DNA of 64,000 bases from Wickerhamiella versatilis (lineage: Eukaryota). This document shows positions 36,976-60,876 of the stretch, in pieces. Numbering within the stretch: position 1 is the first letter of the stretch; each line of letters opens with the position of its first letter. A program made the translations under genes and the position numbers. The stretch is taken from NCBI GenBank assembly GCA_030867685.1, contig JAQOWU010000008.1:4340001-4404000 (forward strand), in the 5' to 3' direction. The notes under the pieces are model-generated. The model made no database searches and was not told the origin of the DNA. It saw only the letters and a program-made list of their open reading frames with translations.

Positions 36976-37203
36976 TTTTTATTGGGAATCTTCACAGAAT
37001 TTATTTTTTAGGCAATAATATATATATTAATATGGGCTAGGAGGGGGCAAGGAATATGAATTCGACCAACCAGATGCCTTGCTTGCATCGTACTTATGTG
37101 TAAGATGATCACCGAAATTGTCTTGCATGAGACCGCAGGTCCTTCGACATTGCTTTATATAAATAAACTAATAATTATACTTCCAGTTTGCACATTGCTG
37201 TAA

Positions 37204-38355
37204 ATGAGGTCATTTCCATTTCATCTTCTCCCGGTATTCAATCATTTAATGTGCACACCATTTTTTGGTGCCTCGAGCCTAACTATGAATGGTGCTATTG
37301 CCAGTCCACAATTAGAAGGGACTAGCCAAAAGTCAAGCATGTGTGATCTTGAAGATGTTGAATTACTTGCAGCAACACATGTTATATATTCGTACAGCGG
37401 CGCGGAACCTCCTCTAGAACTACTCAACCTGACAGAACAGGGGAAAGTCGGTGGCATTATGCTTTTCGGTGGAAACGTTAACGATAATCTCTCAATTAAT
37501 ATTGAGAAAATTCAGCAAGCATATAAGATGAGTCCTGCATACTTTGGCAAACCTCTTTTGATTTCAACTGATCAAGAAGGAGGCTATGTGAAAAGGATAC
37601 CTGGTGGGCCATATGAATCTGCAAAGGAGGCAGGACAACAAAGAAACCCAATTTGTGCCGCGTTACAGGACGGAAAGGATGCAGGACAAACGCTCAAGAG
37701 TCAAGGAGTAAATGTGAATTTGGCACCAGTGCTAGGTGTTTATCGATCGGAAAGTAATTTTTTGAATCAGTTTAACAGGTCATACAGCAATGATACAACC
37801 ATTGTCTCAGCCTGTGGTTCTTCGTTTATTCAGTCGGAACAAAAAGTAGGCATTGCGAGTACTGCAAAGCATTTCCCTGGGCTAGGCTTAGCAGGAAGTG
37901 ATACCACTGATGGGGTACCAGTGACAATAAACTCGACTCTTAAAGAGCTCAGAGAGATTGATATTGTACCGTTTCGTAATGCCATATCAGATGGCGTCGA
38001 CCTAGTTATGGTCTCATGGGCATTCTATGATGCCTTGGATGGCAGCTTACCAGCAGGATTGAGCAAGAAGTGGGTAAAAGGGGAACTTAGAAATGAAATT
38101 GGTTTTGAGGGTGTAACAATTACAGATGCAATTGAAGCAGGTGCCCTCATATCTTTCGGAGATGATAATGAAAGAGCTATCCTCGCAACCCAGGCCGGCA
38201 TGGATCTAATTTCTGCAGGACGTCGCAATGTATCGCAAGGTCTATCGATTGTGAAGGCACTTAGTGCTAAATTGGCTGACGGTTCATTGCCACTTCAAGA
38301 ATTCAGAGAAGCTACTAACCGGATTCAAAAACTCCAAATGAAACTTGGAGCCTAG
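37204..38355 (+). CDS. Single-domain GH3 beta-N-acetylglucosaminidase-like (NagZ-related)
   Basis: LLISTDQEGG.V.R, NLAPV, AKHFPGLG, ITDAIE. No C-terminal GH3 domain. Confidence 0.85.
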   Translation: MRSFPFHLLPVFNHLMCTPFFGASSLTMNGAIASPQLEGTSQKSSMCDLEDVELLAATHVIYSYSGAEPPLELLNLTEQGKVGGIMLFGGNVNDNLSINIEKIQQAYKMSPAYFGKPLLISTDQEGGYVKRIPGGPYESAKEAGQQRNPICAALQDGKDAGQTLKSQGVNVNLAPVLGVYRSESNFLNQFNRSYSNDTTIVSACGSSFIQSEQKVGIASTAKHFPGLGLAGSDTTDGVPVTINSTLKELREIDIVPFRNAISDGVDLVMVSWAFYDALDGSLPAGLSKKWVKGELRNEIGFEGVTITDAIEAGALISFGDDNERAILATQAGMDLISAGRRNVSQGLSIVKALSAKLADGSLPLQEFREATNRIQKLQMKLGA

Positions 38356-38969
38356 AATGCTGTATATTCAAGAGATGAAAATCAATGTTACGAAATTACA
38401 AGTTGAATTATATCTTAAATACTATATACTTAGGCAGCAAGAGCGATAAGCTATAGACTGATTTTAGTGCATTACAGAACATTTTTGATTCAGTAATAAT
38501 ATTAGCCAGCAAACGGTTACTTAAATGTTTTGACCAGAGACAAAGCGTGATACTTTGAGTGCACACACAAGCGGAGTATCTAAAGTTATCCCACCACAGT
38601 CTATAGCAAAATTCAGAAATAAAACAGTTAGAATTTCAGCTCAGACAGAAAATTCAGTGTCACTTCGCTTTCGAGATATAACGCCACATCGAATCCCCGT
38701 CCTCGGTGCCCGAATCCATAACTGTGACTATGCCATCGCATACGTAACGCAGTTTTCCGATATAAAGTTGGAGGAGCCCCATACCTCTCTTTTTAGCTAT
38801 AATATATAATAGTAAGAATCAAAGTTTAATAATTAATGATACTTCACGCTACCCAATCTCTGAGTTTTGTGAGCTAGTTAACCATCGGAAAATGTCGTCG
38901 GAACTTGATTGTCGATTACTCATATTTTGTGGGAGACTACTGTTGACTCAATCTTTCTTGTCTATTGAC

Positions 38970-39545
38970 ATGGCAATTGAGCCTAAGCATGTTGTATTGA
39001 CTGATGGATCAGATGCAACGGTATTCACTGTTGCATCTGCAGAGGAAGTCACTGCTGATATTGCAAGAAAAATGTGCGAAATGTACAATTATGAGGTCTC
39101 AAGGGGTCAAACGTTTCCCCTCGATGAAATACTAGACATAAGTAGTTTTTGTGACTACTGGATACCGCCTTGTTGTGGAATTATGGTATCTGGCTATCAT
39201 CACAAGTTGCCGTCTGATGGAAGCACTGTGCTAGCAACATACTTTATCAAAAAAAACTATCCCTACGGTAGGTGCTCCCATATCGGCAATGCTGCCATGA
39301 TGGTAGATCGTAATGCGCGGAGAAAGGGTATTGGAAAGATTTTAGGTTCTTGCCTGCTTCAAGATGCAAAAGCGTTAAGATATACCTACATAATGCTGAA
39401 TCTGGTGTTTATCACTAACGTTGCTTCACAGAAAGTCTGGGAAGCCATCGGATTCGAAAAAATTGGGCGCATACCTCACGCAGTTAAAGCAGAAGGATAT
39501 CCTCAGCCAGTCGATGCACTAATTTATGGAATGACACTTTCGTAA
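38970..39545 (+). CDS. GNAT N-acetyltransferase, Mpr1/Spt10-like
   Basis: YFIKKNYPYGRCSHIGNA, ARRKGIGK, NLVFITNVAS..WE.IGF..IGRIP. Likely start 38970, with an in-frame ATG also at 38892. Confidence 0.85.
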   Translation: MAIEPKHVVLTDGSDATVFTVASAEEVTADIARKMCEMYNYEVSRGQTFPLDEILDISSFCDYWIPPCCGIMVSGYHHKLPSDGSTVLATYFIKKNYPYGRCSHIGNAAMMVDRNARRKGIGKILGSCLLQDAKALRYTYIMLNLVFITNVASQKVWEAIGFEKIGRIPHAVKAEGYPQPVDALIYGMTLS

Positions 39546-44442: not shown

Positions 44443-46653
44443 CTTGTACTGATTTAATTGATCGGGGATTGACAATCAAGGAACCTTATATAGTCGCTAT
44501 CTTACTAAATTATAGAGGTGAAGGGTCTGGAATTCCTTCGAAACCTTAGTAAGTACGCTTTAGCCATAGGGCCGTTGATTTCCTAGCCTGTTGAGTGAGT
44601 ATTTAACAACCAATGGAAATCACATTTTAACTAATAGGCTATAAATGCAAACCTTTGGACCAAGAATTGTTTTTAGTAGAACTAGAGCCATCCCTTATTA
44701 CCTTCGTGCCGCGATGACTAAAGCACGCAATGCACATATTGCTTTGTTGAATAATAGATCGTCAATATTAACGACTGTAAACTCTGGTGACAACGTTTCC
44801 TGAGAGCAAAAGCGAGATATGTAAAAGAACTTGTAATAAGCATAGTATAACAACATGTGTTACTGAGTTTGTACAAATCTGTGATTGGAGCAGGCCTAAG
44901 TAGACGGAAATAAAAGCGTATAAGGACTTTTTAAAAATTGTGGAAGACAACAATAATACTCAGAAATCTTAAGCGCTCATGAACAAAATCGAGATGCAAA
45001 AGAAATATTTGAACGTGATATATTGGATTCGACTCGACTATCATGATTTGGTCATTAGATAGTACTATATGCATTAAGCAAGTCAATTTAAGTTGAGTAG
45101 AGCCACGCGAGTATCAAAAACTGCTGTTCTGTGTATTCTTTATGTTGTACCCTAATAGAAAGCTACCCAGCCTTTATAGTATCGTGACTTTAAAAGAATA
45201 GCACCCTTACTAGGCTAAATATGACTATGACAGTCCTACTCTCGCTAATAATTAGCACTTCGAAAGGAAGAAATAGCTCATTGTTAATGGTTGTTTCTGT
45301 TTGTGGTCGCAGGAGCAGCTATGCAGATACTACGTCGTCAGGGCGAATGTATATTACATAAACACATTGATACCCGATATGCGAGATGTTGATAGAATAG
45401 ATTTAGATATAGTATATTTTAGGCTAATTGCTGATAGCATTTATTTCAGAAGGCGTCCCTAATTAAATATATGGTCCAGCAGCTCTAATCGTAAAAAGTG
45501 AAATCTAACCAAGCCGGCGTATGTCTCAGAGCTTACTGCATCGAGCATTGTAAGCTCCTATCCCCCGTTGTTGATCTGGTGAAACAATGGTTTGTGTGAC
45601 CCAATTTGATATTTGCCCGATAAAGTGATGCTTCAGCTCCACTCATACTATAATTGTGATACCGCCTTTGAATAAATTGCAAGAGAAAAATAATCAGCTA
45701 GGTATAGAGTCGCTCCAAACCTGGGGGAAACATATCGGCATAAATACAACTCATGATTTTCATTTGCAAAAAAAATTGCCAAAATCTTTATAAAATGCTA
45801 GAATACATTCCCATAAGCCTTTCGGGCTTATCACTCATTGGATACCACAAGCTAGCTTAATGCGAGCGATACGTTAAGAACAAAGTAATTAAATAAATTT
45901 CTACGGTATTTTAATTGAAATATGCGGCAACTGCTATCTCTTGGCAGCAATATCATATCTATGGGGATTGCTCTTGATATAGTAAAATTTTTGCCAGTAT
46001 CGACTGGCACGTATATAATTCAGTACCAGACAGCTAACTGAATTTGTAGGTTACTGAAATCTAAGGAGTATGTTTTTGCACAAAGAACAGAATTTTGGTG
46101 CATATCGGTGTTATATAGCAACGATATCTTGGAACTCTTGCACTTAATAATGGTCCGGGGGTCTAACACATAAGCGCTGGTATGTACGTTGACGAAACCA
46201 TGGTCAGAAAAGCAGCAATAGCAGACTAGAGCCCATTTTAGATCTTAATAGACTGATATTACTGGCGTATGTCTTCTGACATAGCTAGAACCTTGCGAAT
46301 CACGAAGCATCGAACAAATCTGCGAACTACCTTGCATAATATACACTCGGATAAGTCCGATTAAGAAGTAATAGTTCAATAGATTTGAAACCTTTTAGCT
46401 AGAAGAACTAACATTAGCCCTATTTTCTATTTTTCGCTTCCGCATAGGGTATATCAGCCAGACATGGTTAGGGTAGGGTATAATTTGTAAAGTCGCTCTT
46501 AAATACTACATAGAATCAAGCAGCCAGATCCGACTCCTGTGGCTCATGACCCTCGCCCTCCGTTTCCTATGATTCTGCCCCGGTTATACGATAGATAAGA
46601 AATTTATTGGTTTTCAAAATTAAAAGTTTCTCATCGGATCGTTATCTTGGAAA

Positions 46654-48211
46654 ATGAAGCTCGATATCTTTGAATTAAGACAGAGTAGCGAGTCCCAAAG
46701 AAAAGATCATGAGAAAGGCTGGATAGCTGATATACATCTGGGATGTTCAGAATCTCTGAACCGTGAGTACTCGATGCTGAGTGTCTTTTCATTTACGATA
46801 TCGATTTCGGCCCTTTTTGCAACAGTAGGAACGTCATTTGCTTATCCTTTGATAGCTGGAGGACCAGTATGTATTGTATGGTCATGGCTAATAGGTGGTG
46901 TAGGCTCCCTTCTCATCGCATTGTCAGTTTCAGAACTCGTAAGTGCCTATCCGCGTTCTGGAGGGTTGTACTATGTATGCAGCCGTGTTTTTCCTGCGGA
47001 ACCTAGTTGGCACGGATGGGCCCCGCTGATGGCATGGGTCAATGGGATACCTTAGTTTAGGTGGACAACTGGCTTGCGCAGCTTCCTCAGAGTGGGGTGG
47101 CGCTCAAATGGTTCTGAGTGCCGCTTCAATGGGGTCGGACTTTACCTATATTCCTACAGACTCCCATACTGTCGGTACGGTGAGCGCAATCATTCTATTT
47201 CATGGTTTTATTAATTGTCTACCCACAAAATATGTGGAACGTTTAGGTAGAGTCTACTTTGTGCTACACTACGCTGCGCTCGTTGCGGGCGTGATTACTC
47301 TCCTGGTATGTACGAAGGACAAGAATAATGTTGACTACGTGTTTAAAAAATTTGATTCGACCTCAGGATGGTCTCCAGATGGCTGGTCATTTATGTTTGG
47401 CTTCCTTGCTGTTAGTTGGACACTTACCAATTATGATGCACCTGCACACTTGTGTGAGGAGACCAAGAGCCCAGATACCAAGGTGCCTTGGGGTATTGCC
47501 ACTGGAAATTCAGTTACAGTACTCCTTGGTTTTGTTTACAATATAGTCTTATGCTTTTGTATGGGTCGGCCAGATTCTATCGTTGATGCTTCTCTGCCTG
47601 TAGCACAAATATACTATAACCAGCTTGGTAAAGCAGGAGGTATCACATTTACCATACTAATGTTTCTGGTAATGAACTTTGCTTGCATTAGTATAATCCA
47701 GGCTGCAAGTAGAACAATGTGGGCTCAAGGAAGGGACAATTTATTTGGAAGACGAGGTTCGCGACTAGTAGGAAGGGTCAATCACGTTACGAATACTCCA
47801 ATAAATTCTGTATTAATCTCTTCTTTCCTGTGTATCTGTATAAACTTGATTGGGCTCGGTAGCGACGAGACAATTAATGCTATATTTAATGCTACACCAA
47901 TTCTTATTGATTGGTCCGCATGCATACCAATTATTGGGAAGCTACTTAATCCCAAATTATTTAAACGTGGTCCCTGGCATCTGGGAAAAGCATCGACTGC
48001 TATAAATGTCGCTTCAGTCCTGTGGACATCTTTTGTGAGCATTGTTTTTGTTATGCCCAGCTCAATGCCAGTGAACAAAGAAAATATGAATTACTGTGTT
48101 GTTTTCATAATTGCTCTATTGTTTTCATCTCTACTAGGATGGCGATTTGGTGGTAAAAGAGCTTATAAAGGTCCTGAGGAGGAATCAGAGATCGAATACT
48201 CGGAAAAGTAG
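46654..48211 (+). pseudogene. Fungal APC amino-acid/GABA/polyamine permease (Uga4/Tpo5-like), split by a 1-nt frameshift
   Basis: ORFs 46654-47055 and 47042-48211 join into one permease (SELVSAYPRSGGLYY...WVNG|YLSLGGQ...YDAPAHLCEET) if one G is removed from AATGGGATAC (47044-47046). Could be an assembly error. Confidence 0.85.
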
Positions 48212-48304
48212 GGAAAGTTCTAACCATCAAGCTTTTTTGAAATAAGCTTCTAAATTTTAACGATAATTTGAATTTTTTAGGAATAAAAAAGAAAAAAATT
48301 TAAT

Positions 48305-49759
48305 CTAGTTCCATATAAGCAATTTCAAGGGTGTCGGTTCATAACCACTGCATGGGTTATTGAGCTGGGGGCAATTTGAGATCAGCACCACTAGGTCCAT
48401 TTTGGCTTTCATCTCTACATATTTTCCTGGGCCTGATACACCATCAGCAAAGTCAAGCACACCATCTGGGGAGACAGGGACATTCATGAAAAAGTTAATA
48501 TTATGAGCGATATCGCGTTTGGTGATCCCAAACTCTGGATGCAGAGCTGTTGCAAGCATCCAGTTGTCACGGCATGAATGCATATGTCGCCTTTCCAGAT
48601 CATATCGGACAGTGTTGCTCTCACTGGCACATGCTCCACCAAGTGTATCATGCCTACCACATGTGTCGGCTGTAATCTCTAACATTTCATTACCCAGATT
48701 TGAAAGAAGTTTGGTGCCCGTACTCAAATACAAATTTTTCTGTTCCCGAATTGTATCCATGCAGCTATAACGCTCTGAGGTATCATCTGCGCGAAAGAAA
48801 AGCGTATCCGCGGCTTCATTGCCTTCAACGTCTACAATTCTTAAGGTTTGTCCTTTCCTAACCTTTCCAATGTAATGATCGCCGGCATCAATGACGTAGT
48901 GAGTGATAGCATTTTCCTCACGTTTGATGCTCTCCAAAAGACGAGGGTTTTCAAATTTCATATTAGCGAACCTGTCCACCACATCGAAGCTGCTTTTGTC
49001 ACTAGAGTCATGTAATGATAGTGAGCTCAAATTCCGTAGTCCTAAGTGATAGAGACGATTATTCTCAAATCCTCTCTTGTTTTCAGGACAGTGTTTAAGG
49101 CACAAGTCGGAAGATAGCATGGGAGGTGCTTCACTGAGGTTGATATCAACACCTCTCTTGATATAATTTAGGCTCGAATCCATAGGATGTGGACAGGTGT
49201 GGATAATTACAAGTGTGTCCATCTCGAAACGAAGTGTAACACTACTTCCAGGCTTACAATTTCCAGGAACGTAAGCCAGCTCCCCGCGATCGTCACATTC
49301 CACTTTACTGAAAATATTCAGGTTTGCAGGCATATCTCGTCGTCCGAGGCCATATTTGGCCATCTCAATAAGAAAACTTTCGTATCCGGTTTGAGTGCGA
49401 TCGTTATGAGCTGACTGGAAGCCAACTTCTTGCCAAAATTTACGCAGCATGAGATCTCTAGTAAGATTCCCACCCACGCAATCGTGCCAACCCACATTGT
49501 CTGCGACAATTGAAGCAAAAATTCTTCCCATATCAGAATAGATACAATTTCCACGTGACAACTTGAATGTATGCTGACACTTTAACGTATCGGGTAGATT
49601 CAGACGCTCCAACTTATTTTCAGGGTTGAAGAATAACATACCAACATTCGTATCTTCATATTGGGTAGACAATGTCATTGTGGTACCTTGACGTAGTCGT
49701 AATGACCAGTGCTGGCCACCGGGTAAATGTGTAGTGTAGCTGAATTCTTTTTGTTCCAT
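48305..49759 (-). CDS. cgdAB: Fused carboxyguanidine deiminase CgdA-CgdB (two urea-carboxylase-associated DUF1989 proteins in one ORF)
   Basis: N-half LPGGQHWS...ERLNLPDTLKCQHT...YSDMGR...WHD...CPHP. C-half GQTLRIVDVEGNEAADTLF...DTCGRHDTLGGAC...NINFFMNVPV...SNCPQLNNPC. A Ser-rich linker separates them. Confidence 0.9.
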   Translation of the reverse strand: MEQKEFSYTTHLPGGQHWSLRLRQGTTMTLSTQYEDTNVGMLFFNPENKLERLNLPDTLKCQHTFKLSRGNCIYSDMGRIFASIVADNVGWHDCVGGNLTRDLMLRKFWQEVGFQSAHNDRTQTGYESFLIEMAKYGLGRRDMPANLNIFSKVECDDRGELAYVPGNCKPGSSVTLRFEMDTLVIIHTCPHPMDSSLNYIKRGVDINLSEAPPMLSSDLCLKHCPENKRGFENNRLYHLGLRNLSSLSLHDSSDKSSFDVVDRFANMKFENPRLLESIKREENAITHYVIDAGDHYIGKVRKGQTLRIVDVEGNEAADTLFFRADDTSERYSCMDTIREQKNLYLSTGTKLLSNLGNEMLEITADTCGRHDTLGGACASESNTVRYDLERRHMHSCRDNWMLATALHPEFGITKRDIAHNINFFMNVPVSPDGVLDFADGVSGPGKYVEMKAKMDLVVLISNCPQLNNPCSGYEPTPLKLLIWN

Positions 49760-50111
49760 AATGCGACTGTAAAAGTTGTGAAGACTGTTACCATAAGATA
49801 TATCAATATATACTCCGCGGACTTAGTATCAAAATCTCGCTACAAATTACCCTGCAACTCGGAGCGACGGTTACCAGGATCGGCAAACGGACGCCGCAGC
49901 TAGTTGCATAACTTTGTCATGGTAACGAGTACTGCATATGAAGAAATGGCAATTTAGAGCGAATAAGCCACTTTACTTTATTTTAAAATATGAGATAGAT
50001 ACTAGTGGAAAGTTATAGCGATGATATGTGTTTAATCACGGTGCTTAGAATCTCAATCAGATCTACAAATAACCGCTATACCCTTCAATTTAATTCAAAC
50101 AACCGCTTCAC
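49760..50111. promoter_or_regulatory. Bidirectional promoter between cgdAB and the carboxylase
   Basis: 352 bp between divergent ATGs, with a GC-rich core carrying four CGG triplets and three GTTACCA copies. Confidence 0.6.
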
Positions 50112-53100
50112 ATGTTCGATAAGGTATTGATAGCGAACCGTGGTGCAATAGTAACGCGAATTCTTCGCACCTTGAAACGATTAAAGATAAAAGCGGTTGT
50201 TGTATATGCTGAAAGCGACCGCGAAGCGCCATATGTACATGATGCGGATGAATCCTACTCTCTCGGTGATGGAACAGCTAGCCAAACATACCTTGACATG
50301 GAAAAAATTCTCATTATCGCTCGCAAAAGTGGAGTGGAGGCTATACACCCTGGATATGGGTTTCTATCGGAGAATGCCGACTTTATTAACGCCTGTGATA
50401 AATCAAAAATTGTCTTTCTTGGTCCTAAGGCACATCATGTTCAGGAATTCGGCTACAAGCATCGGGCGAGGCAATGTGCTGAACGAGCAGCTGTAGCACT
50501 AGTGCCTGGTTCTGGACTTCTTGATGATGTGGAAAAAGCTCAGAAAGTAGCTCAAGAAATAGGTTTTCCCGTGATACTCAAATCAACTGCTGGTGGGGGA
50601 GGTATTGGTATGCAGGTGTGTGAAGACTCCTCGGCTTTGAGTCGATCTTTTGAGTCTGTACAAACTCTCAGTAAGCGTAATTTTGGGAACGGAGATGTCT
50701 ATATAGAGGCTTTTATACCTAAAGCCCGTCACCTGGAAGTCCAGATATTTGGTGATGGTACAGGCAAAGTAGTAGCTCTTGGAGAGCGGGATTGTTCATC
50801 GCAGCGCCGCAATCAAAAAGTTGTTGAAGAATGTCCAGCACCCGCACTGCCCGATCGTGTAAAACAGGAAATTCATGACACAGCTAGGCGCCTCGGGGAA
50901 TCGGTTAAGTACCAAAGCGCAGGCACTGTAGAGTTTATCTATGACGTACCTCGTCAAAAGTTTTACTTTCTTGAGGTCAATACGCGACTTCAAGTAGAGC
51001 ATGGGGTCACAGAACTAGTTTGGAATGTTGATCTTGTCGAGTGGATGGTTCGTCTAGGGGCAGGTGAGCTGCCTCAGTTAGACTCTCTAAGGAGTAACCT
51101 AGCACCTTCTGGCCATGCTATTCAGGCAAGAATATATTCTGAAGATCCCCTACATAACTTTCGTCCTAGTTCAGGACTTCTCACAGAAGTGAGATTTCCC
51201 GAGTTCCATGGACTACGAATTGATCACGCACTGAAGGCAGGAATTGAAGTCTCGGCGCTTTATGACCCCATGATTGCGAAGGTGATATCTTTCAGTTCTA
51301 ATCGCAACAATGCTTGTGACCTGCTAAGGGAATCACTTGAAAATACTCAGATTTATGGAGTCATCACGAATAAGGAGTGGCTAGTAGCTCTACTTACTAG
51401 TAGAAGCTTTTTATCCGGAAATATTTATACTCAATGGTTAGAGTCATTTCAGTGGTTACCAGATGCAATCGAAATACTAGCATCAGGTACCCTCACGACT
51501 ATTCAAGATTATCCTGGCCGCCAAGGATATTGGAATGTCGGTGTTCCTCCCTCTGGGCCCTTCGATGACTGGTCCTTCCGACTTGGAAATCGCCTTCTAG
51601 AGAATCCAGAGAATGCTGCAGGATTTGAGATAACGCTAAATGGACCCAAAATACAGTTTTTCGTCGCAACCCAGATAGTAATTGCTGGCTCATCATACTC
51701 AGCGACACTCAATGGAAACCCTATCCAGCCGTGGGTAGTTATTGATGTGAATGTAAGGGATATACTCTCTATGGGCTCTGTATGCAATGGTATGAGAAGC
51801 TACCTATTGTTCCGCGGGGGTGTCAAGTGCCCTCTGTATTTAGGCTCACGTAGCACGTTCACCCTGGGACAATTTGGTGGCCATGTTGGGCGCTCACTGA
51901 AGACAGGAGACCAACTTGGCCTCAACAAGCTTCCTCCGGTTCGAACTCGTATTCTTAATCCTTCCCTATTGCCAAGATATTCTAATGGCGATGGACTCTG
52001 GGAAATATCAGTATGCTATGGACCTCATGGCGCCCCAGATTTTTTCACAGAACAGGACATCAATACTCTATTCAGTCACCAATGGAAAGTTCATTATAAT
52101 TCAAGTCGTACTGGTGTTAGACTTATGGGACCGCATCCTGAGTGGGCCCGTAGTGATGGTGGAGAAGCAGGTCTGCACCCGTCTAATATACATGACAATG
52201 CATATGCATTTGGTACAATTGACTTTACTGGAGACATGCCTATCATCCTCGGTCCTGATGGACCCTCTTTAGGAGGTTTTGTCTGTCCTGCCACAGTAAT
52301 CCACAGTGATCGCTGGAAAATAGGGCAGTTGGCACCCGATGACAGAGTTAAATTCGTTCCTGTCTCAATGAATCAAGCGCAAGCCATTGAGAGACAGTAC
52401 ACTCATGCTCTAGAAAACTTATCCCCACTATGCCTGCCTGCTATTATACCATCTAAAGGCTCACCTATTCTACGTGAAGTAGAAGCAAGTGAAGCCGGTG
52501 AATGTATAACATATCGTTGTGCTGGTGACGATTTTCTACTTATCGAGTTTGGACCCATAATTCTCGACATATCTCTTCGCTTTAGGGTGCATACCTGGAT
52601 GCTTTGGGTAGAGTCGCATAAATTACCGGGAATAAAAGAATTGACGCCAGGAATACGCTCTTTGCAGATACACTACGATCCCAGCAGATTGTCGATAGAA
52701 GCACTTTTGATTCATTTAAGGCAAGCTGAGAATGAGCTGCGCAGTATTAATGATTTAGAAGTTGAGACTCGTGAGATATTCCTCCCAATTTCTTGGGATG
52801 ATCCTGACTGCCAAAAGGCAATCGATCATTACCAGCAGAGTGTCAGACCAGGAGCACCATGGTGTCCAAGCAATTTAGAATTCATCCGTCGAATCAATGG
52901 ACTTAAAGATATCAGTCAAATAAGAGATATTATTTTTGATGCTAGCTATCTTGTCATGGGGCTGGGTGATGTATATCTTGGTGCGCCAGTGGCCACTCCA
53001 TTAAATCCAACACAACGGCTCGTAACCACAAAGTATAACCCAGCTCGTACATGGACGGCAGAGAATTCAGTTGGTATAGGTGGCGCTTACCTTTGTGTTT

Positions 53101-53711
53101 ATGGGATGGAAGGTCCTGGTGGATACCAATTTGTCGGGCGGACATTGCAAATGTGGAATCGTTACGAGAGTACCGAATATTTCAGTAACCCCTGGTTATT
53201 GAAGTTTTTCGACCAGTTGCGATTCTATGAAGTTAGTCATGACGAATTGATCAGAATACGTCGAGACTTTCCACATGGTCGTTTCAAGCTGAATGTTCGT
53301 CAGAATACTTTCCGATTAGCAGACTACGTCGAAGATATGAAGAAGATTCAAGAGGATGTCGATGAGTTTCGCGTAAAGCGCGAAAAAGCTTTTCAGGAGG
53401 AAATTGCCAGATGGCATGCGAATGGTCAATTCACGTTTGAAGAAGACCCGAAGGAGTTGTACAGTAATGATAACCCAGTTGTTGAAGATGGCGAGCTGCA
53501 GGTTGAAAGTCCAGTCTCGGGGAACATATGGAAAGTGATGGTGAATGTTGGCGATTTCGTACAGAAAGACGACACACTTGTACTTATAGAGTCGATGAAA
53601 ATGGAACTCGCGGTATGTGCCCAGTGTAATGGAGCTATTGAGAGAATTCTGATCAAGGAAGGGGTTATGACTACCAACGGTCAGCCTTTGATCGTTATGA
53701 AAGAAATATGA
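50112..53711 (+). CDS. uca: Stand-alone bacterial-type urea/guanidine carboxylase (biotin carboxylase + carboxyltransferase + BCCP; no allophanate hydrolase domain)
   Basis: MFDKVLIANRGAI, FLEVNTRLQVEHGVTE, GLHPSNIHDNAYAFGTIDFTGDMP, TKYNPARTWT and biotinylation site ESMKME. 1199 aa versus about 1830 aa for yeast Dur1,2. Confidence 0.95.
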   Translation: MFDKVLIANRGAIVTRILRTLKRLKIKAVVVYAESDREAPYVHDADESYSLGDGTASQTYLDMEKILIIARKSGVEAIHPGYGFLSENADFINACDKSKIVFLGPKAHHVQEFGYKHRARQCAERAAVALVPGSGLLDDVEKAQKVAQEIGFPVILKSTAGGGGIGMQVCEDSSALSRSFESVQTLSKRNFGNGDVYIEAFIPKARHLEVQIFGDGTGKVVALGERDCSSQRRNQKVVEECPAPALPDRVKQEIHDTARRLGESVKYQSAGTVEFIYDVPRQKFYFLEVNTRLQVEHGVTELVWNVDLVEWMVRLGAGELPQLDSLRSNLAPSGHAIQARIYSEDPLHNFRPSSGLLTEVRFPEFHGLRIDHALKAGIEVSALYDPMIAKVISFSSNRNNACDLLRESLENTQIYGVITNKEWLVALLTSRSFLSGNIYTQWLESFQWLPDAIEILASGTLTTIQDYPGRQGYWNVGVPPSGPFDDWSFRLGNRLLENPENAAGFEITLNGPKIQFFVATQIVIAGSSYSATLNGNPIQPWVVIDVNVRDILSMGSVCNGMRSYLLFRGGVKCPLYLGSRSTFTLGQFGGHVGRSLKTGDQLGLNKLPPVRTRILNPSLLPRYSNGDGLWEISVCYGPHGAPDFFTEQDINTLFSHQWKVHYNSSRTGVRLMGPHPEWARSDGGEAGLHPSNIHDNAYAFGTIDFTGDMPIILGPDGPSLGGFVCPATVIHSDRWKIGQLAPDDRVKFVPVSMNQAQAIERQYTHALENLSPLCLPAIIPSKGSPILREVEASEAGECITYRCAGDDFLLIEFGPIILDISLRFRVHTWMLWVESHKLPGIKELTPGIRSLQIHYDPSRLSIEALLIHLRQAENELRSINDLEVETREIFLPISWDDPDCQKAIDHYQQSVRPGAPWCPSNLEFIRRINGLKDISQIRDIIFDASYLVMGLGDVYLGAPVATPLNPTQRLVTTKYNPARTWTAENSVGIGGAYLCVYGMEGPGGYQFVGRTLQMWNRYESTEYFSNPWLLKFFDQLRFYEVSHDELIRIRRDFPHGRFKLNVRQNTFRLADYVEDMKKIQEDVDEFRVKREKAFQEEIARWHANGQFTFEEDPKELYSNDNPVVEDGELQVESPVSGNIWKVMVNVGDFVQKDDTLVLIESMKMELAVCAQCNGAIERILIKEGVMTTNGQPLIVMKEI

Positions 53712-53775
53712 GCCAGGTTAAACTTTCTTTAGATTATTATTGAAATTATGTTATATCGTCTGATTAGTGAGCATG

Positions 53776-54195
53776 CTAAATTATCGTCACATTATATACC
53801 GTAGACAACATTAACTTACTTACCATTTTGAGGCCCACAACACCACCTACTATCATAGATAAGAACACAAATTTAGTTAAGTCCATGGACTCAGTACCCC
53901 ACAGTACAGATACACTTACTGTCGCGACCCCGCCTACTGCAGTCCACACCGCATAAGCCGTACCAGTTGGTACAAAACTCATTGACCAACCCAAACCTCC
54001 CATACTTATAGAAAGACCAACTAGGAAAATTGATATAGGTGCAGCTTTGTGTGGCCCCTCCACATTCCCGAGAGCTGTAGCCCAAACGGCCTCGAACAGT
54101 CCGGACACCAGCAATATTAACCAAGCACTTTGGTTACTGTTCGCAGCAAAGCTTCCGGATTCTTGTTTGAGCGAAAATGAATTTGGAATCCACAT
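53776..54195 (-). CDS. gdx: SMR-family guanidinium exporter Gdx/SugE, bacterial type
   Basis: AWLILLVSGLFEAVWATAL (membrane Glu13 and Trp16 equivalents), ISM, PTGTAYAVWT, GVVGLK. Four TM helices with short N- and C-terminal extensions. Confidence 0.88.
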   Translation of the reverse strand: MWIPNSFSLKQESGSFAANSNQSAWLILLVSGLFEAVWATALGNVEGPHKAAPISIFLVGLSISMGGLGWSMSFVPTGTAYAVWTAVGGVATVSVSVLWGTESMDLTKFVFLSMIVGGVVGLKMVSKLMLSTVYNVTII

Positions 54196-55052
54196 TTCGT
54201 TTTCTTGTACTCCAGCATTTTAATCAAACTTCTTATACTTTGTATAGCCGGGGACTCGTTCTTAACTTCCCTCAATAGACATCATGACTAACACACCTGC
54301 GTGATAGCGTGCTCGGTCTCTGTTACGTTCTCTGTTACTTGTCTTTAGTAATTGGATGTCATTAGTAGTTGGATATCAGTTAAGGTTTCAGGTTTCCTAA
54401 GTTGAGCCGCGCGACATCCGTTAAGGTATTAGCCACAACGTGGAACGGTTCTAGCTAATTTATGAAAAGGAATGAAGCTAGATGGTGTCGCAAAAACAAA
54501 TCATTAATAAAATCTCTAAGCTGATTCTCATGATGTGGCTATAATGGTATTGGTTATTTTTCGACTGTATTCTGCTGTTACGAGTATCTGTATGGTCATA
54601 GAGGCATCACAGCAATCACCCCAATCCCCGCCATTTTCCAATTTTTTTCCTGTGTTAGGCTGTTTATTACATGCGATGATGTTCCATGCTTCACAAAATG
54701 TGAAAACACATATTATGATTGATAATACCTCAGATGCCTTTTTTCAGACGTATTTGGGCCTTTACTAATTTTGAATGATCTGTTAATATAAGATCAGCAA
54801 CCAGCTATAACTCATCATGCAGCACTGTACTCGCACTTTCTTGTATAAGCTTTGTTAAAAATACATTAATTCCAGTAGTCAGTAAATTTGTTTTTGTTTC
54901 TAGCGACTAGAATACCGCCGGGGTTTCGCGTTTCTGGCAGTGTCGAACTGGGGTATTATTACTATGACTAATTTGATGAGTAGCATACGTAACAAACAGG
55001 TTAAATCAAGCCGCGGCTTACGCTTCACCATTTTTTAAAGGGGCTTTGATTA

Positions 55053-56180
55053 ATGTATAAGGTACTTGTTCTCGGTGGATCATTTGCCGGTGTATGCATC
55101 TCACATGCCCTCCTGAAACAAAATTCAGACGTGCACGTAACCCTAGTAAACCCCCACGATGATTTTTACTTTTGCCTAGCAGGGCCCCGCATATTTGCAG
55201 ATCCGAGCTTTTTTAAGCCAGAACAATATTTACACTCCATAAAGGAAGCATTTAAGAAGTATGGGCGCAGGTTTGAGTTTGTGAAAGGCTTGGCTGAGGA
55301 CATCGACCTAAATGACAAAACCGTACTGCTCTCAAGTTCCCAGAGACTTTCATACGACTACCTTGTAATAGCTACTGGTAGCAAAACAACATTTGATGCT
55401 TTCAAACCATCAGGCGATTTAAAAGAAAGCATTAAAAACCTTCAGGATCAAATAGCCAAATCTAAAAGTATAGCGATTGGTGGTGGTGGACCTTTAGGTA
55501 TTGAAATTGCTGGAGAAATTGCAAACTCGTATCCATCAAAAAGCCTTGTACTCATTTGTGCTACAGATCGGTTATTGGACACACTCAAGCCTTCTGCTGG
55601 TACTAAGGCGAGAAACCTTCTTGCAAAACAGAATGTTAAGGTAATTGAAGGCACGAAGGTAAAAGAATATGTGGATGGAAAGGTCTATCTCACGAGTAAT
55701 CCTATGTCGAAGGTGGTGAAGAAGTCCAAAGTTACTGGATACGTAAGTAAAGAAGCAACTTTCGATAATTCAGGTGAGCCGCTTGATGCAGATTTGTATA
55801 TACCGGCCACAGGTGTCACGCCAAATAACAGTGCCATTCCCAAATCCTTATTGACAAGCAGCGGATATGTTAAAGTTAACAAGAACATGAAAGTCGCGGA
55901 CTATGTATATGCTGCCGGAGATGTGACAAATATTTCCGACAAGCTCGCTAGCAGAGCCATGGATGAGGCTAAGGTAGTAGCCTCCAATATAAGTTCAGAG
56001 GTTCGCGGTACAAGGCCTTCTAAGAAATTTAAAGAAGGGCCATTAATGATGCTTGTACCCATAGGCCCTTCGACAGGGACAGGCCAGATCTCCAACATAA
56101 TCATTAGTGGCTTTTTGATCAAATACATTAAGGCCAAAGATTTTCTGATATCATTCGGTAAATCCATTGCATATCAGTAG
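55053..56180 (+). CDS. AIF/AMID-like FAD-dependent pyridine nucleotide oxidoreductase
   Basis: VLVLGGSFAG, YDYLVIATG, IGGGGPLGIEIAGE, YAAGD. Confidence 0.88.
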   Translation: MYKVLVLGGSFAGVCISHALLKQNSDVHVTLVNPHDDFYFCLAGPRIFADPSFFKPEQYLHSIKEAFKKYGRRFEFVKGLAEDIDLNDKTVLLSSSQRLSYDYLVIATGSKTTFDAFKPSGDLKESIKNLQDQIAKSKSIAIGGGGPLGIEIAGEIANSYPSKSLVLICATDRLLDTLKPSAGTKARNLLAKQNVKVIEGTKVKEYVDGKVYLTSNPMSKVVKKSKVTGYVSKEATFDNSGEPLDADLYIPATGVTPNNSAIPKSLLTSSGYVKVNKNMKVADYVYAAGDVTNISDKLASRAMDEAKVVASNISSEVRGTRPSKKFKEGPLMMLVPIGPSTGTGQISNIIISGFLIKYIKAKDFLISFGKSIAYQ

Positions 56181-56561
56181 ATAGTCAGGATATGACGAAA
56201 TGCTTAATATGTTCCTTTAATCCTGAATATACCAATCAGGAGATTTTATCAGCTCTTTAATTATGGTACTAAGATTATGTGATCGATTCGCTGGTAAATA
56301 ACGTCTTTGATTCATAGTTGCCAAGAAGACGTAACAACGAAATGTCTATAAGTAATTAGGGTCTGTAGAAGTCGATTCCTGAAAATACAATGTATTTCTG
56401 CGCTGGAAGCCATGTCGTTGACTTCAATTTGTAGCAAGATGTTACTGCATCCCAAGATTGTGTAATTTATTTTACATTGCTATGATAGCTTCCCTGGTTC
56501 TCAGATATGATTTCTGCAATATTAGTAATATATCCCCTCCCCACAGGGACAGAAAACGTAA

Positions 56562-57518
56562 ATGCGAGCAGCGGCGGTAGCAGCAGCAGGCGGTCTTGGA
56601 TTGACTATATTACTCTATGTCAAACGCTCCAGGTCATGGGAAATGATTGAACCTAGTTTGAGGAACATTGTGGTTCGTTTCAAAACACCAAACGCAAGTA
56701 CTTGGATCTGGATACTTAGAGTCCTCGGACGGTTACCGCAACCTCTATATCCTAAAACAGTAGTAAGGAAACATGATATCAATGCGAATGGGCTTCAATT
56801 GTATCTTTACTTGCCGGAGAAGGCCACATCGAGAGGAGCTCTTTTCTACGTGCATGGTGGTGGTTTCATCGGTGGAAGTGCACCGCTTTATCATAACCTT
56901 TTATCAGAAATCGCAGGGAAGGCGAAGTGTGTAGTCGCGCAGGTTGAATATCGGTTGGCCCCTAAGAATCCTTATCCAGCTGGGATGGATGATAATTGGG
57001 AAGGATACAAATGGCTCCATGATCATGCAGACGAACTAGGGGTCGATAGAAATTATCTGGTGATAGGTGGAGACAGCGCGGGTGGAGGCCATGCAGCGTC
57101 ATTGGTACATAAGGTTCATGATGAGTGGCCGGCGGCTCAGCCTGTGCTGCAGTTGTTGAATTATCCGATGCTTGATGATAGAACACCCAAACAGTTTCCT
57201 CGTGGGGAGCTCATCTGGACGTGGGAATCAAATCAACACGGTTGGAAGTCGTATATAGGACAAAATCCAGGGAACTATACAGTAGCGGCGAGGAGAAATG
57301 ATCTTAGTGGACTACCTCCTGCTTGGATAGGTGTGGGTAGCCTTGACTTATTCTATGAGGAGGATCTTACCTATGCGTCGAGACTTAAAGAAGCTGGAGT
57401 TCCTTGCACACTAGATATTGTCGAGGGCGCTTATCATGCGTTCGACTTCCTACCCACCCAAATCTCACTACAGTATCGAGAGAGAATGATAGCAGCTTTA
57501 GCTAAGGCTATCAATTGA
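56562..57518 (+). CDS. HSL-family alpha/beta-hydrolase esterase
   Basis: HGGG oxyanion hole, EYRLAP, GDSAGG nucleophile, DLF and YHAFD. Confidence 0.92.
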   Translation: MRAAAVAAAGGLGLTILLYVKRSRSWEMIEPSLRNIVVRFKTPNASTWIWILRVLGRLPQPLYPKTVVRKHDINANGLQLYLYLPEKATSRGALFYVHGGGFIGGSAPLYHNLLSEIAGKAKCVVAQVEYRLAPKNPYPAGMDDNWEGYKWLHDHADELGVDRNYLVIGGDSAGGGHAASLVHKVHDEWPAAQPVLQLLNYPMLDDRTPKQFPRGELIWTWESNQHGWKSYIGQNPGNYTVAARRNDLSGLPPAWIGVGSLDLFYEEDLTYASRLKEAGVPCTLDIVEGAYHAFDFLPTQISLQYRERMIAALAKAIN

Positions 57519-58105
57519 TCCGCTTGGCCCATTATGAATGTTATCTCATTTGCTTGGCTGTCTCTATTCTGTTCTTGGGTTTGGTTTTTGGTTTATCACT
57601 ATGCTTATCGCAAATCTTCTATAAATTTGAGAATTCTTTTTTTTTGGATATGAAAATTATGACACACTTTCTAAGAATTAAAGTTACTCCACAGGGTACT
57701 CACTGTTACACTTATTTACTTAGGGGAAAGTTAAGCGAAAACGTAATGTTTCGCTGATGTAACAACCGGAACTCCGAAACACTTGAAGTTCTATGGATGA
57801 TAGGGTTATGTATACCGCGCTAAAAGGTTCTTTTAGTGCTCTGCAATATCCAATGGATGAAAGATATTTTTACTAGAGCTAACAATCTGACCGGTTGGAT
57901 CAAAAGTTTTGTCACTCCTGTTTAGAAGCGCCGCATTAGTCCCATTCGTTGTATGCAGGAATGTTAGGAATGTTTTTGTAAGCTACGGTCCCCCGAGCTT
58001 CCACCTACGTAATTAATTTGATAATCGAAGTATTATTAAGTATTTATTCTCTATAAGTATATGACGCGATATAAATCCAAGTTAGCAACTGCGGGAATTT
58101 TAGCC

Positions 58106-59002
58106 ATGTGGTCAAATCTCTCTTACCTATTACTCTTGGCTACTGCCCGCTGTAGCCCAACTTGTGCGGCACCCACATCCTCACTATCAATAGCGGAGGT
58201 CTATAATCCTGGACTTGGATCGATCTTCGATGTTTCTTCTGAAATCTTGGAAACAGACGATTATCTGGTACTTTTTGACACGCAGTTCCAGAAAAATGAT
58301 TCAGAAGTATTGGTTCAGAAGATTAAAGACCTCAACAAACCTTTGAAGACAGTTTATGTTACTTATTCAGATCCCGACTATTACTTTGGGGCTGCTGTCA
58401 TTCAAGATGCTTTCCCGGATGCGCAGATAGTTGCTACCCGTCCAGTTGTTGATGCTATAAAGGGAAATGAGGAATTGAAGCAAAAGACCTGGGATAAGCA
58501 GCTGGGTGATAATGCTCCAGACCGGATCGTAATTCCTGACCCTATTGATGTGGGAAGCTGTCATGTTGTACTTGATATTGAGGGACACAAAGTGTATTCC
58601 TACGGAGTTCTGGATAACCGTACATTCAATTGGATTCCTTCACTTGGCACAGTGCTTGGTGGTATACTTGTTGATGTGAATGCTCACGTTTGGTTAGCTG
58701 ATACGCAGACTACAGAATCGCGAGAGATATGGATTCAATCATTGGATCAAATTAAGAGCCTTAATCCAGCAAAGGTCATTCCAGGCCACTTTTACAAGAA
58801 TAGCAATGGCACCGACCCCTTTTCTATCGCATCCATTGATTTCACTGCGGAGTATATCCGTAAATTTAATGAGGAAAACTCTCGCACTGGTAACTCCACT
58901 CAGCTCATCGATGCAATGACAGCAATATATCCTGATCTCGCAGGTACCAGCAATCTCGAAACGAGCGCTCAGGTCATTAAGGGTGAAATTCCTTGGCCAT
59001 AG
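58106..59002 (+). CDS. Secreted MBL-fold metallo-hydrolase-like protein, proteobacterial type
   Basis: VYNPG..SIF.VSS, DTQFQKND, TYSDPDYYFG, HVWLADTQT, VIPGH, C-terminal KGEIPWP. Signal-like start at 58106, alternative ATG 58061. Confidence 0.82.
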   Translation: MWSNLSYLLLLATARCSPTCAAPTSSLSIAEVYNPGLGSIFDVSSEILETDDYLVLFDTQFQKNDSEVLVQKIKDLNKPLKTVYVTYSDPDYYFGAAVIQDAFPDAQIVATRPVVDAIKGNEELKQKTWDKQLGDNAPDRIVIPDPIDVGSCHVVLDIEGHKVYSYGVLDNRTFNWIPSLGTVLGGILVDVNAHVWLADTQTTESREIWIQSLDQIKSLNPAKVIPGHFYKNSNGTDPFSIASIDFTAEYIRKFNEENSRTGNSTQLIDAMTAIYPDLAGTSNLETSAQVIKGEIPWP

Positions 59003-59725
59003 AAGAGCAATTTAGCTATATTATAGAATTCGAACTACCCTAGAAATGAATGATTTATAACTTGAAATTATCGCTGATAAAAATGACTGAAAGAGATCCA
59101 GTCATCTTGGTATTACGGGTGGAGTAGCCTATACATGTCACTGCACGCACTACTGGGGAGCGCAATCTCGCTACCAGTATCAGGCTTAGAAGAATTCTAC
59201 AAGGCATCTTCAATAACCTCTTATCGGCTTATACAGATAGATCTCAAATCTTGGACCTGCATCTACTGACAGAAAAGTATCCTAATCGAACGTAACGAGA
59301 GTTTTAGGTTTGTAATTCTTAGGCACGAGAATCGAGGGTTGGGCAATCACAAGCCAAACAGGGATTGAAAGATACAGTAAAATAAAAAGAAACGACATCG
59401 CATACAATTGTGACTATATATCTTATGACGTTTTTGGTATGGAAAGATCTGTATCAACCAAATCTAGTAGTGGCGTGGTTATTGAGATGAGGCACAATTC
59501 TAGTTCAATACTCTCTGCTATACTTGCTGAGGTTGTGCCACCTTCGCTTATATTATGAGACTTCACGGTTATGAAAGATATCGGTCCGATCCTGGATAAA
59601 CATGATTGGTAATTGGTCTCCACCTATTATATTTAGATGACAAATATTTATAAGCGGAATTGGGTTAAGAGATTATTATAAAAGACAAGTTGTAAGTGTG
59701 AGTGTTTGCAGGAGTGCTCACATCA

Positions 59726-60388
59726 ATGAACGTATCTGAGGCCATTGCGACCCGTCGTTCCGTTAGGAAGTATTTACCCGATCCAGTATCCTTAAGTACC
59801 ATTCAAAAGGTGTTCGATAAAGCCCGCTGGTCGCCATCAGGATGCAACTTTCAACCCTGGGAAGGCACCGTGCTCGCAGGCCAGCCATTGAAGGATCTTC
59901 AAGCAAAGCTTGTGAGTGCACCGAGGGATGATCCTTTGGAGTATGACTGGTCAATACCGGATAAAGTTGAAAAATACCTAAAACGCAAGCAGGAGTTGGG
60001 AGCGTCAATGTATGGTGCCCTAGGTATTAAGCGTGACGATACGGAATCACGTAGGAATTTCGTTGTGGAGAACTTGAAATCCTATGGGGCTCCTGCTCTT
60101 TTGGTGATCTACTTCCCCAAGATGATGGAGGCACCCCAATGGTCCGACGTCGGGATGTGGCTGCAGTCTGTTATGTTACTCCTTCGAGAAGAGGGCCTAG
60201 ACAGCTGCCCTCAAGAGTTATTGGGATGGTACGGTCGTACTATCAAGGCCCATCTTGGCCTTCCGGACGACTACATAGTGTTCTGTGGGTTGACAATTGG
60301 CAAAAGTGATTCAGAAGCCCCCATTAATACATTTGAACGTCCGAGAGTTCCGCTGAGTGACCAAGTGAAATTTGTTGGGTTTGATTAG
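59726..60388 (+). CDS. Nitroreductase family flavoprotein, bacterial type
   Basis: MNVSEAIATRRSVR, SPSGCNFQPW, DVGMWLQSVMLLLREEGLDSCPQE. First ATG 59726. Confidence 0.92.
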   Translation: MNVSEAIATRRSVRKYLPDPVSLSTIQKVFDKARWSPSGCNFQPWEGTVLAGQPLKDLQAKLVSAPRDDPLEYDWSIPDKVEKYLKRKQELGASMYGALGIKRDDTESRRNFVVENLKSYGAPALLVIYFPKMMEAPQWSDVGMWLQSVMLLLREEGLDSCPQELLGWYGRTIKAHLGLPDDYIVFCGLTIGKSDSEAPINTFERPRVPLSDQVKFVGFD

Positions 60389-60876
60389 GGGTTTGTGGAA
60401 GCTATTGCGTCTCCAGAAACGTGGGCTTTGAAAATGTATTCGATGCGGCACGCTGTCATTGATGATGCTAGTGACCGCATGCCACATATTCAGATATCTT
60501 AGTCGATATACCAGGCAGAGGAGGTGCTATGAGCTTATGAGTATGTGGCCCTGAATACCATTGCTATTTCTAGGTCAAGCAATTTTTGAGACCGTCACGA
60601 ACCACAACACTTAATCAGCTATCATAATTCTTAGATTCCACGCTGGAATCTATCTTTGAAAGGACCAGGTAAAAAAAATACAATACTAGAGTATTTAAGA
60701 TTAATCGGACATGAGGTCCTGTGTAATTTCAAAAAAATTGAAATAAAGGATAACAACGACACATGTCACTTTTAAAGTACATTTGGAGTAATCAACCTCG
60801 ACACCAAACCTTAACCCATTCATCATCATATGGGCTCTCTACACTTCAAAAAAAATACTCATTCTATAGAAATCGA

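Follow-up and report, generated by a model that had tools for sequence, protein, structure and literature searches.

We analyzed a 64,000 nt stretch of the Wickerhamiella versatilis genome (assembly GCA_030867685.1, contig JAQOWU010000008.1, positions 4,340,001 to 4,404,000 of the forward strand; the whole stretch is referred to as the window) and found an open reading frame (ORF) in which the two subunits of the bacterial enzyme CgdAB, CgdA and CgdB, are joined in a single chain. The ORF lies next to a divergently oriented gene for a guanidine-carboxylase-like biotin carboxylase (Table 1). CgdAB and the guanidine carboxylase pathway were reportedly defined by Schneider et al. in 2020. We regard it as likely that this fungal chromosome carries a horizontally acquired guanidine-assimilation module with a single-chain CgdAB that was fused by the loss of a stop codon. 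In bacteria, CgdA and CgdB represent two clades of the protein family PF09347 and form a heteromeric enzyme (Palatinszky et al., 2024, PMC11410670; for the heteromeric nature see also PMC12508155).

The first-pass annotation of the locus had described two complete DUF1989 paralogs joined in frame and had proposed a profile scan in which two matches were to be expected. Indeed, the frame is open over its full length, and PF09347 (DUF1989; Pfam) matched the encoded protein twice, with a total of 389.4 bits against a cut-off of 27. The NCBIfam models assigned one half each. TIGR03425 ('urea amidolyase associated protein UAAP1', CgdA type) matched the N-terminal half with 444.6 bits (cut-off 205.95) and TIGR03424 ('UAAP2', CgdB type) the C-terminal half with 417.5 bits (cut-off 284.7). 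The A half is 65-70% identical to CgdA and the B half 71-77% identical to CgdB of Halomonadaceae and Salinisphaera. Eight of the 45 linker residues between the halves are Ser, and the Ser-rich linker of ~26 codons that had been placed at ~49040-48962 falls within them. The linker holds LGL (the three amino acids with which CgdA ends in bacteria), an Arg encoded by CGG, ~30 extra residues and Met267. The latter is the internal Met that had been noticed at 48961 close to the start of CgdB: its ATG occupies 48961-48959 and lies 6 residues upstream of residue 273, which aligns with the start Met of bacterial CgdB. These data confirm that the fusion gene is real and that a CgdA-type half is followed by a CgdB-type half in one ORF.

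Relatives were collected from one genome per GTDB species (185,579 species). The scan returned 578 relatives, of which the best 80 were examined. All of these belonged to the Pseudomonadota except for one metagenome-assembled genome (MAG) of the Binatia, and Halomonadaceae and Salinisphaera ranked at the top. A careful tree of 42 rows, calculated with the two halves joined (LG+C20+F+G4), grouped the window protein with the fused proteins P0001 (97% identical) and P0002 (79%) at a support of 100/99, and this trio with the fused proteins P0003 and P0004 (59-61%) at 98/90. The five fused proteins were sister to Salinisphaera locus L006 and the metagenome locus L155 (100/99), and together with these sisters they were placed inside the clade of Halomonadaceae and Salinisphaera (100/100). 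The carboxylase is 60.5-65% identical to the product of the gene directly downstream of cgdAB in loci of the Halomonadaceae/Salinisphaera type, with the next-best loci at ~57%.

Bacteria had been said to usually carry these genes separately and co-directionally in an operon with the carboxylase gene, and the surveyed loci bear this out. cgdA and cgdB were two ORFs in 79 of the 80 best GTDB loci, and just 2 of the 150 best cluster representatives were two-domain proteins of at least 430 aa. Where a bacterial locus left 1500 nt or more of sequence on its downstream side, the carboxylase gene followed on the same strand in 75/76 GTDB loci and 54/56 metagenome loci; it was divergent in none. In the window the fusion gene is flipped relative to the carboxylase gene, as had been pointed out, and diverges from it across 352 bp.

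The cluster is embedded in fungal DNA. It has fungal genes on both sides, and the window encodes GDT1, a double-CrcB FEX-type protein, a eukaryotic aspartyl protease, several MFS transporters and two Zn2Cys6 factors, all of them in long uninterrupted ORFs. One relative of the GDT1 protein is 95% identical, and the best named relatives are from budding yeasts (43-47%), with some early-diverging fungi being similar. Taken together with the uninterrupted ORFs, this points to an intron-poor, yeast-like host, probably a budding yeast. In GC content, the three foreign genes (0.43-0.45; fusion gene 0.434, carboxylase gene 0.449) resemble the window (0.43), as opposed to 0.555-0.663 in the bacterial loci. 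The CTG codons of the carboxylase gene argue for the standard code with CTG read as Leu, because 11 of 15 fall into alignment columns in which Leu or Ile is commonest among 25 bacterial homologues (6 columns are invariant Leu).

Expression of the fusion gene was seen in one informative RNA run. Poly(A) reads of a 95-99% identical strain covered 48044-49961 including the linker, with no joints and no indels, and the summed depth was ~5-14 per bin in most bins of the gene and ~7 in the linker bin. The protein nested within a bacterial clade, the host-like GC content, the fungal flanks and the poly(A) coverage establish a horizontal transfer from bacteria into the fungal chromosome. The ORF stayed open when the 28 listed differences of this strain were applied (37 more across the covered stretch are outside the list): 21 of them are silent and 7 change a residue. 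Three of the four differences in the linker are residue-changing, compared with 4 of the 24 that lie elsewhere in the ORF, a distribution that would fit a constrained enzyme with a loose tether. A stop codon in the linker, which had been named as a finding that would speak against the fusion, was absent from the reads of this strain as well as from P0001 and P0002.

It is hardly credible that the feature is an artefact, whether through contamination with bacterial DNA, through a chimeric assembly or through a stop codon lost to a sequencing error. The neighbouring permease gene does contain a frameshift that might be an assembly error. However, the GC content is matched locally, fungal genes lie on both sides, the fusion gene is covered by poly(A) reads of a different strain, and the stretch is present in 20 of 24 listed sequencing runs from 11 studies, which are mostly metagenomes of food fermentations. 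Moreover, the junction is not one missing stop but a 45-residue linker that is conserved in P0001 and P0002. Salty food fermentations, the source of window-type DNA, commonly harbour halophilic gammaproteobacteria and actinobacteria.

How might the two genes have been joined? In Halomonas, CgdA ends with NNRLYHLGL followed by the stop codon, and the start Met of CgdB follows after 4-5 codons; in Salinisphaera the spacer between cgdA and cgdB is 18 codons long. In the window protein, the C-terminus of bacterial CgdA (NNRLYHLGL) is retained in full, and an Arg (CGG, 49036-49034) occupies the position of the bacterial stop. After 30 further residues, the alignment to CgdB starts from the first residues of that protein. 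The pattern fits the loss of the cgdA stop codon and the conversion of the spacer into a linker that was then lengthened. Linker motifs are common to P0002 and the window protein, and the linker must thus be at least as old as their split (79% identity). Gly-Ile-Pro at the junction is common to P0002, P0003 and P0004. Given the tree and these junction motifs, the simplest reading is one fusion in the ancestor of the window protein and P0001-P0004. The first-pass annotation had proposed a fusion by read-through, and the intact CgdA C-terminus with an Arg at the stop site speaks for this part of its proposal.

The fold was predicted with AlphaFold2 from an alignment of 36 fused proteins only; a mixed alignment was discarded because MAFFT had stacked the paralogous halves. 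The model had a predicted TM score (pTM) of 0.84 and a mean per-residue confidence (pLDDT) of 83. Residues 242-271 were below 50, and only the linker was disordered. Foldseek matched the model to the solved DUF1989 proteins 3ORU, 3SIY and 3DI4, whereas by sequence just the B half matched solved DUF1989 chains, including trimethylamine N-oxide (TMAO) demethylase. No structure of the CgdAB heteromer was found in the PDB. When the two halves were presented as separate chains, the complex test scored 0.90 compared with 0.04 for the best of three controls, with run contacts agreeing by at least 96% and a partner pLDDT of at least 91. The mark used in this test is reached by 51/78 solved complexes and by 2/108 mismatched pairs; the test ran without alignments of fused proteins, and the pass may lean on solved DUF1989 structures or on the paralogy of the halves. 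The structure prediction that had been suggested in the first-pass annotation thus supports binding of the halves to each other. The predicted interface takes in many positions that are invariant in the A or the B half, from which we infer that the active site may be shared between them.

The two subunits might be fused in the DNA only and be made as two proteins, by internal initiation at Met267 or by cleavage of the linker, to be reassembled as a heteromer. Met267 is positioned suitably for this, 6 residues ahead of where bacterial CgdB starts, and the linker is disordered in the model and evolves faster than the domains. We nevertheless hold two separate proteins to be very unlikely. In yeasts, translation unusually starts internally after 266 codons, P0002, P0003 and P0004 do not share Met267 in the alignment, and the RNA coverage continues over the linker with no cluster of 5' ends reported there.

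We then asked what the single-chain CgdAB and the carboxylase might act on. The carboxylase matched TIGR02712 (urea carboxylase) with 1701.3 bits (cut-off 1303.85), and its biotin-carrier domain (PF00364) spans residues 1135-1196 with an MKM motif near residue 1163 (counted on the translation). Guanidine carboxylases are distinguished by Asp at the position of Kluyveromyces lactis residue 1584 together with Asp, not Asn, at 1330 (Palatinszky et al., 2024, PMC11410670). In the alignment with the K. lactis urea amidolyase (5i8i_A), Asp953 (52968-52970) is placed at Asp1584 (GLGDVYLG vs GLGDVFLG) and Asp704 (52221-52223) at position 1330, which is Asn in the urea enzyme (GTIDFTGD vs GAINFTGD). 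By alignment, then, the carboxylase has both of the published guanidine-carboxylase signature residues.

That the pair acts on urea or another substrate instead of guanidine appears highly improbable to us. The NCBIfam/TIGRFAM names still say urea, and the yeast's own urea amidolyase pathway would likewise make allophanate. Yet the Asp at the position of K. lactis 1330 is the residue that separates guanidine from urea carboxylases, and a SugE/Gdx-like gene is adjacent to the carboxylase gene. In addition, the nearest bacterial relatives are found under guanidine riboswitches: in L001 and L012, one of the guanidine-I class lies upstream and one of the guanidine-II class separates cgdB from the carboxylase gene, a layout that matches the published operon of Vreelandella (Halomonas) boliviensis (PMC12508155), and L006 has a guanidine-II riboswitch.

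We propose that the donor was a relative of the halophilic gammaproteobacteria (Halomonadaceae or Salinisphaera), whose operon would have had the order guanidine-I riboswitch, ABC importer, cgdA, cgdB, guanidine-II riboswitch, guanidine carboxylase. The fungus would have kept only cgdA, cgdB and the carboxylase gene, the latter now oriented away from the fusion gene. The cgdA stop would have been lost with an Arg codon taking its place, and the short spacer would have turned into a disordered linker of ~30 residues. Most likely, the halves would pack against each other within the chain much like the subunits of the bacterial CgdA-CgdB heteromer, and one mRNA with one translation start would yield both subunits in equal amounts. 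The carboxylase would convert guanidine, ATP and bicarbonate to carboxyguanidine, which the fused CgdAB would convert to allophanate and ammonia. Allophanate would finally be turned into ammonia and CO2 by the host's putative own allophanate hydrolase.

Several observations weigh against this proposal. In the same run that expresses the fusion gene, the depth of the carboxylase gene was ~0-1.5, which misfits simple co-regulation, and no allophanate hydrolase was found within the window. A-to-B fused proteins were also found in bacteria, inside compact operons of ABC transporter, cgdAB and carboxylase (L094, L129 and L070, the last a gammaproteobacterial MAG). At least 7 changes between the fused and the split state were counted on a 103-row tree, the fused rows of which were chosen for being fused. 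P0003 and P0004 share a clade with the window protein (98/90) and are fused too. Finally, when genomes were sampled by the CgdB model alone, a frame common to cgdA and cgdB was seen in just 15/35 Halomonadaceae genomes and 1/12 class-wide genomes, and L155, one of the two nearest bacterial loci, has them out of frame.

The first of these observations touches on the idea of a bidirectional promoter, which the first-pass annotation had deduced from the layout of the genes alone. The divergent genes differ in depth (~5-14 for the fusion gene as opposed to ~0-1.5 for the carboxylase gene), so that a shared bidirectional promoter is not demonstrated. The spacer between the genes contained no GATAA motif (0.91 expected), and control by GATA-type nitrogen factors is thus unsupported. 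No Rfam match with E <=1 to a riboswitch was obtained in 46000-55000, as is expected for a eukaryotic copy. Within the spacer, 49845-49900 forms a CGG/CCG-rich patch that includes CCGCGG and CGG-N10-CCG. Sites of the CGG/CCG type are bound by Zn2Cys6 factors; no gene for such a factor is adjacent.

The bacterial fusions raise the possibility that the donor bacterium had the fused form from the outset and passed it on as a single gene, which would make the fusion uninformative on eukaryotic expression. The order of the halves in L094, L129 and L070 is the same as in the window. A fused group of 472-474 aa adjoins the Binatia locus L023 in the tree, and metagenome contigs of this group encode an ABC ATPase, fused cgdAB and a biotin carboxylase in genes spaced 35-100 nt apart, as an ordinary operon of bacteria. 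Among fused proteins of 520-570 aa, two are named by their source as Solirubrobacteraceae and Patulibacter. A further fused protein is source-named Methylobacterium, but both of its halves were labelled B-type in a half-by-half check, which leaves the A-to-B order unsupported in this case. Two EukProt entries, one of them from Mesostigma, are fused as well. Fused forms are present in bacteria, and P0002-P0004 may have fungal or bacterial hosts, so that the fusion could have arrived ready-made.

However, the nearest bacteria for which DNA was at hand are all split, as seen in 19/19 loci of the Halomonadaceae/Salinisphaera group, and no fused member of this clade was present among the best 80 of the 578 GTDB relatives. 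A metagenome scan with the five fused clade members returned, among the matches listed, only bacterial-type loci at 43-67% identity and no contigs of P0003 or P0004, and the ESM Atlas held only single-domain bacterial clusters. The FYMINK/GARP ratio of P0003 and P0004 (~1.0) is intermediate between that of the window protein (1.2) and those of the Halomonadaceae/Salinisphaera sequences compared (0.67-0.86), which weakly suggests that the two differ from high-GC bacterial proteins. The linker motifs shared by P0002 and the window protein, which make the linker as old as their split, also speak against a ready-made gene. All in all, we lean towards a fusion after the transfer into the fungal lineage and consider a fused donor gene rather unlikely. 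A donor that already carried the fusion had been named beforehand as the result that would tell against the first-pass annotation; the nearest loci argue against such a donor, while P0003 and P0004 leave room for it. The view that the fusion is a eukaryote-specific adaptation of the operon did not hold up, given L094, L129 and L070 and the repeated changes of state: since fused cgdAB exists in bacterial operons, monocistronic expression need not have been the selective reason.

A fusion by loss of a stop codon raises the question of whether cgdA and cgdB of the donor shared a reading frame. In all 80 best GTDB loci the genes were in frame, mostly with a single stop between them, but the general rule that this seemed to indicate was rejected as mostly a ranking artefact. 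The enrichment in tblastn-ranked loci arises because the alignment runs through an in-frame stop, which doubles the score. Locus lists ranked by tblastn E-value (here L001-L160) are therefore enriched for a shared frame, a general trap when the spacing of gene pairs is judged. Within the nearest group, 16/19 loci are in frame and 3/19 are not, in a set biased by the same tblastn ranking. Together with the samples drawn by the CgdB model, these counts make an in-frame donor plausible, not given.

Table 1. Coordinates of the fusion gene, its parts and its neighbours in the window, and of bacterial single-chain CgdAB genes on their own loci.
Feature	Position	Strand	Remarks
Fused CgdA-CgdB ORF	48305-49759	(-)	484 aa, open 484 codons; carboxyguanidine-deiminase-like protein
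CgdA-type DUF1989 half	49046-49738	(-)	residues 8-238; TIGR03425
Linker	48911-49045	(-)	residues 239-283; matched by neither TIGR03425 nor TIGR03424
CgdB-type DUF1989 half	48311-48910	(-)	residues 284-483; TIGR03424
Divergent spacer, putative shared promoter region	49760-50111	.	352 bp between fusion gene and carboxylase gene
Guanidine-carboxylase-like biotin carboxylase	50112-53711	(+)	1199 aa, stand-alone, without amidase domain; TIGR02712
SMR-family protein, SugE/Gdx-like	53776-54195	(-)	139 aa, tail-to-tail with carboxylase gene; PF00893
APC-family permease (TIGR00907 type)	46654-48211	(+)	overlapping frames 46654-47055 and 47042-48211; convergent with fusion gene
Bacterial single-chain CgdAB genes	L094 1018-2442; L129 2358-3614; L070 7908-9365		inside ordinary guanidine-type operons

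Two transporter genes flank the fusion gene and the carboxylase gene. The SMR-family protein matched PF00893 with 67.3 bits (cut-off 23.7); its best NCBIfam match was SugE (NF008512) with 69.6 bits, under the cut-off of 126. The nearest named relatives, at 52-60% identity, are from Aestuariimicrobium, Rothia and Gordonia, which we take to be Actinobacteria, and the window protein has an N-terminal extension of ~23 residues beyond the 104-aa bacterial forms. Among the genes that flank cgdAB in the bacterial loci, none matched the SMR protein or the permease. The SMR gene thus looks like a separate acquisition and was probably transferred on its own, and its product is a possible guanidinium exporter. 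Copies of the SMR protein with 100% and 89% identity are encoded on contigs of 86,550 and 19,793 bp, sizes that match the longest contigs of P0121 and P0001, two relatives of the fusion protein. Judged from these equal contig sizes alone, the pairing of the SMR gene with the fusion gene is probably conserved in relatives.

The permease gene is split at ~47042-47055 with no profile positions missing, through either a one-base frameshift or an assembly error, and the RNA depth is low there. A link of the permease to guanidine uptake would be a guess. Just before position 48038, 12 reads of the poly(A) run have a loose end that resembles a template-switch oligo. Unless it is an artefact of the library, this suggests that a plus-strand RNA has its 5' end in the 3' part of the permease ORF and extends, in antisense orientation, into the fusion gene from the 3' side.

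The region as a whole is rich in transporters and accessory enzymes. At 36310-39545, the window encodes a GH25 muramidase (-), a NagZ-like GH3 beta-N-acetylhexosaminidase (128 bits, below the cut-off) and a GNAT acetyltransferase. This trio resembles a toolkit for bacterial cell walls and may constitute a further cluster of foreign origin or with a role in defence. Downstream of the guanidine cluster, at 55053-63707, follows a series of enzyme genes that look bacterial, with a pyridine-nucleotide disulphide oxidoreductase, an HSL-type esterase, a nitroreductase, a Vmh-family MBL-fold hydrolase (263.6 bits, below the cut-off of 430), a ketopantoate-reductase-like protein and an SDR.

The bacterial carboxylase pathway (PMC11410670, PMC9800807, PMC12186494) provides the first comparison. 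As in bacteria, both DUF1989 paralogues stand in the same order beside a signature-bearing carboxylase, and the halves are predicted to bind. Unlike bacterial CgdAB, the window has one polypeptide with a disordered linker, a eukaryotic host and a divergent carboxylase gene, and its cluster comes without the riboswitch, the ABC importer and the adjacent allophanate hydrolase. The closest system is the operon of V. boliviensis and its relatives (Sinn et al., 2025, PMC12508155), to which each half is 65-77% and the carboxylase 60.5-65% identical. Operon and window have cgdA, cgdB and gca in common, whereas in the operon a stop and 4-18 spacer codons keep the two cgd genes apart, guanidine-I and -II riboswitches are present and all genes are co-directional. 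The bacterial single-chain CgdA-CgdB proteins resemble the window protein in their A-to-B order and a comparable linker length. They differ in that they belong to other clades (near the Binatia locus L023, L070 and Actinobacteria), have unrelated linkers and are encoded in compact operons. A description of bacterial single-chain CgdAB was not found in the literature, these forms being database sequences only.

Among yeasts, two precedents come to mind. The enterobactin operon of the Wickerhamiella/Starmerella clade (Kominek et al., 10.1101/399394) is likewise a bacterial operon in a yeast, with clustered and rearranged genes that have other genes beside them and poly(A) transcripts. Kominek et al. 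excluded a fused polypeptide because the intergenic lengths were not multiples of three; here, in contrast, two transferred genes form one ORF. Yeast DUR1,2, which combines allophanate hydrolase and urea carboxylase, represents the sister pathway, is of bacterial origin and also arose by the fusion of two adjacent genes, but other partners were joined (Strope et al., 2011, PMC3073912). Stand-alone urea carboxylase occurred in none of the Saccharomycotina sampled by Strope et al.; the carboxylase of the window stands alone and has no amidase domain.

We found no paper on the guanidine carboxylase pathway in a yeast or other fungus or on a fused CgdAB, though supplements may list such cases. The window thus apparently holds an undescribed eukaryotic variant of a known bacterial pathway. 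We suggest only tentatively that this is the first eukaryotic guanidine-carboxylase pathway and a mosaic cluster, with the carboxylase and cgdAB from gammaproteobacteria and the Gdx-type exporter from actinobacteria, in which the stop was lost after transfer.

To date, descriptions of guanidine breakdown through the carboxylase pathway come from bacteria. If our explanation is true, the loss of a stop between subunit genes would represent the route that Kominek et al. (10.1101/399394) considered and excluded in their case. If the module works, it would open up a new source of nitrogen to the fungus and might also make it tolerant of guanidine, and it would be a clean natural case of the conversion of an operon into a fusion during transfer from a bacterium to a eukaryote. 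The fused forms in bacteria indicate that the CgdAB heteromer tolerates tethering, and a working module would provide a ready-made single-chain CgdAB for structural and enzymatic studies.

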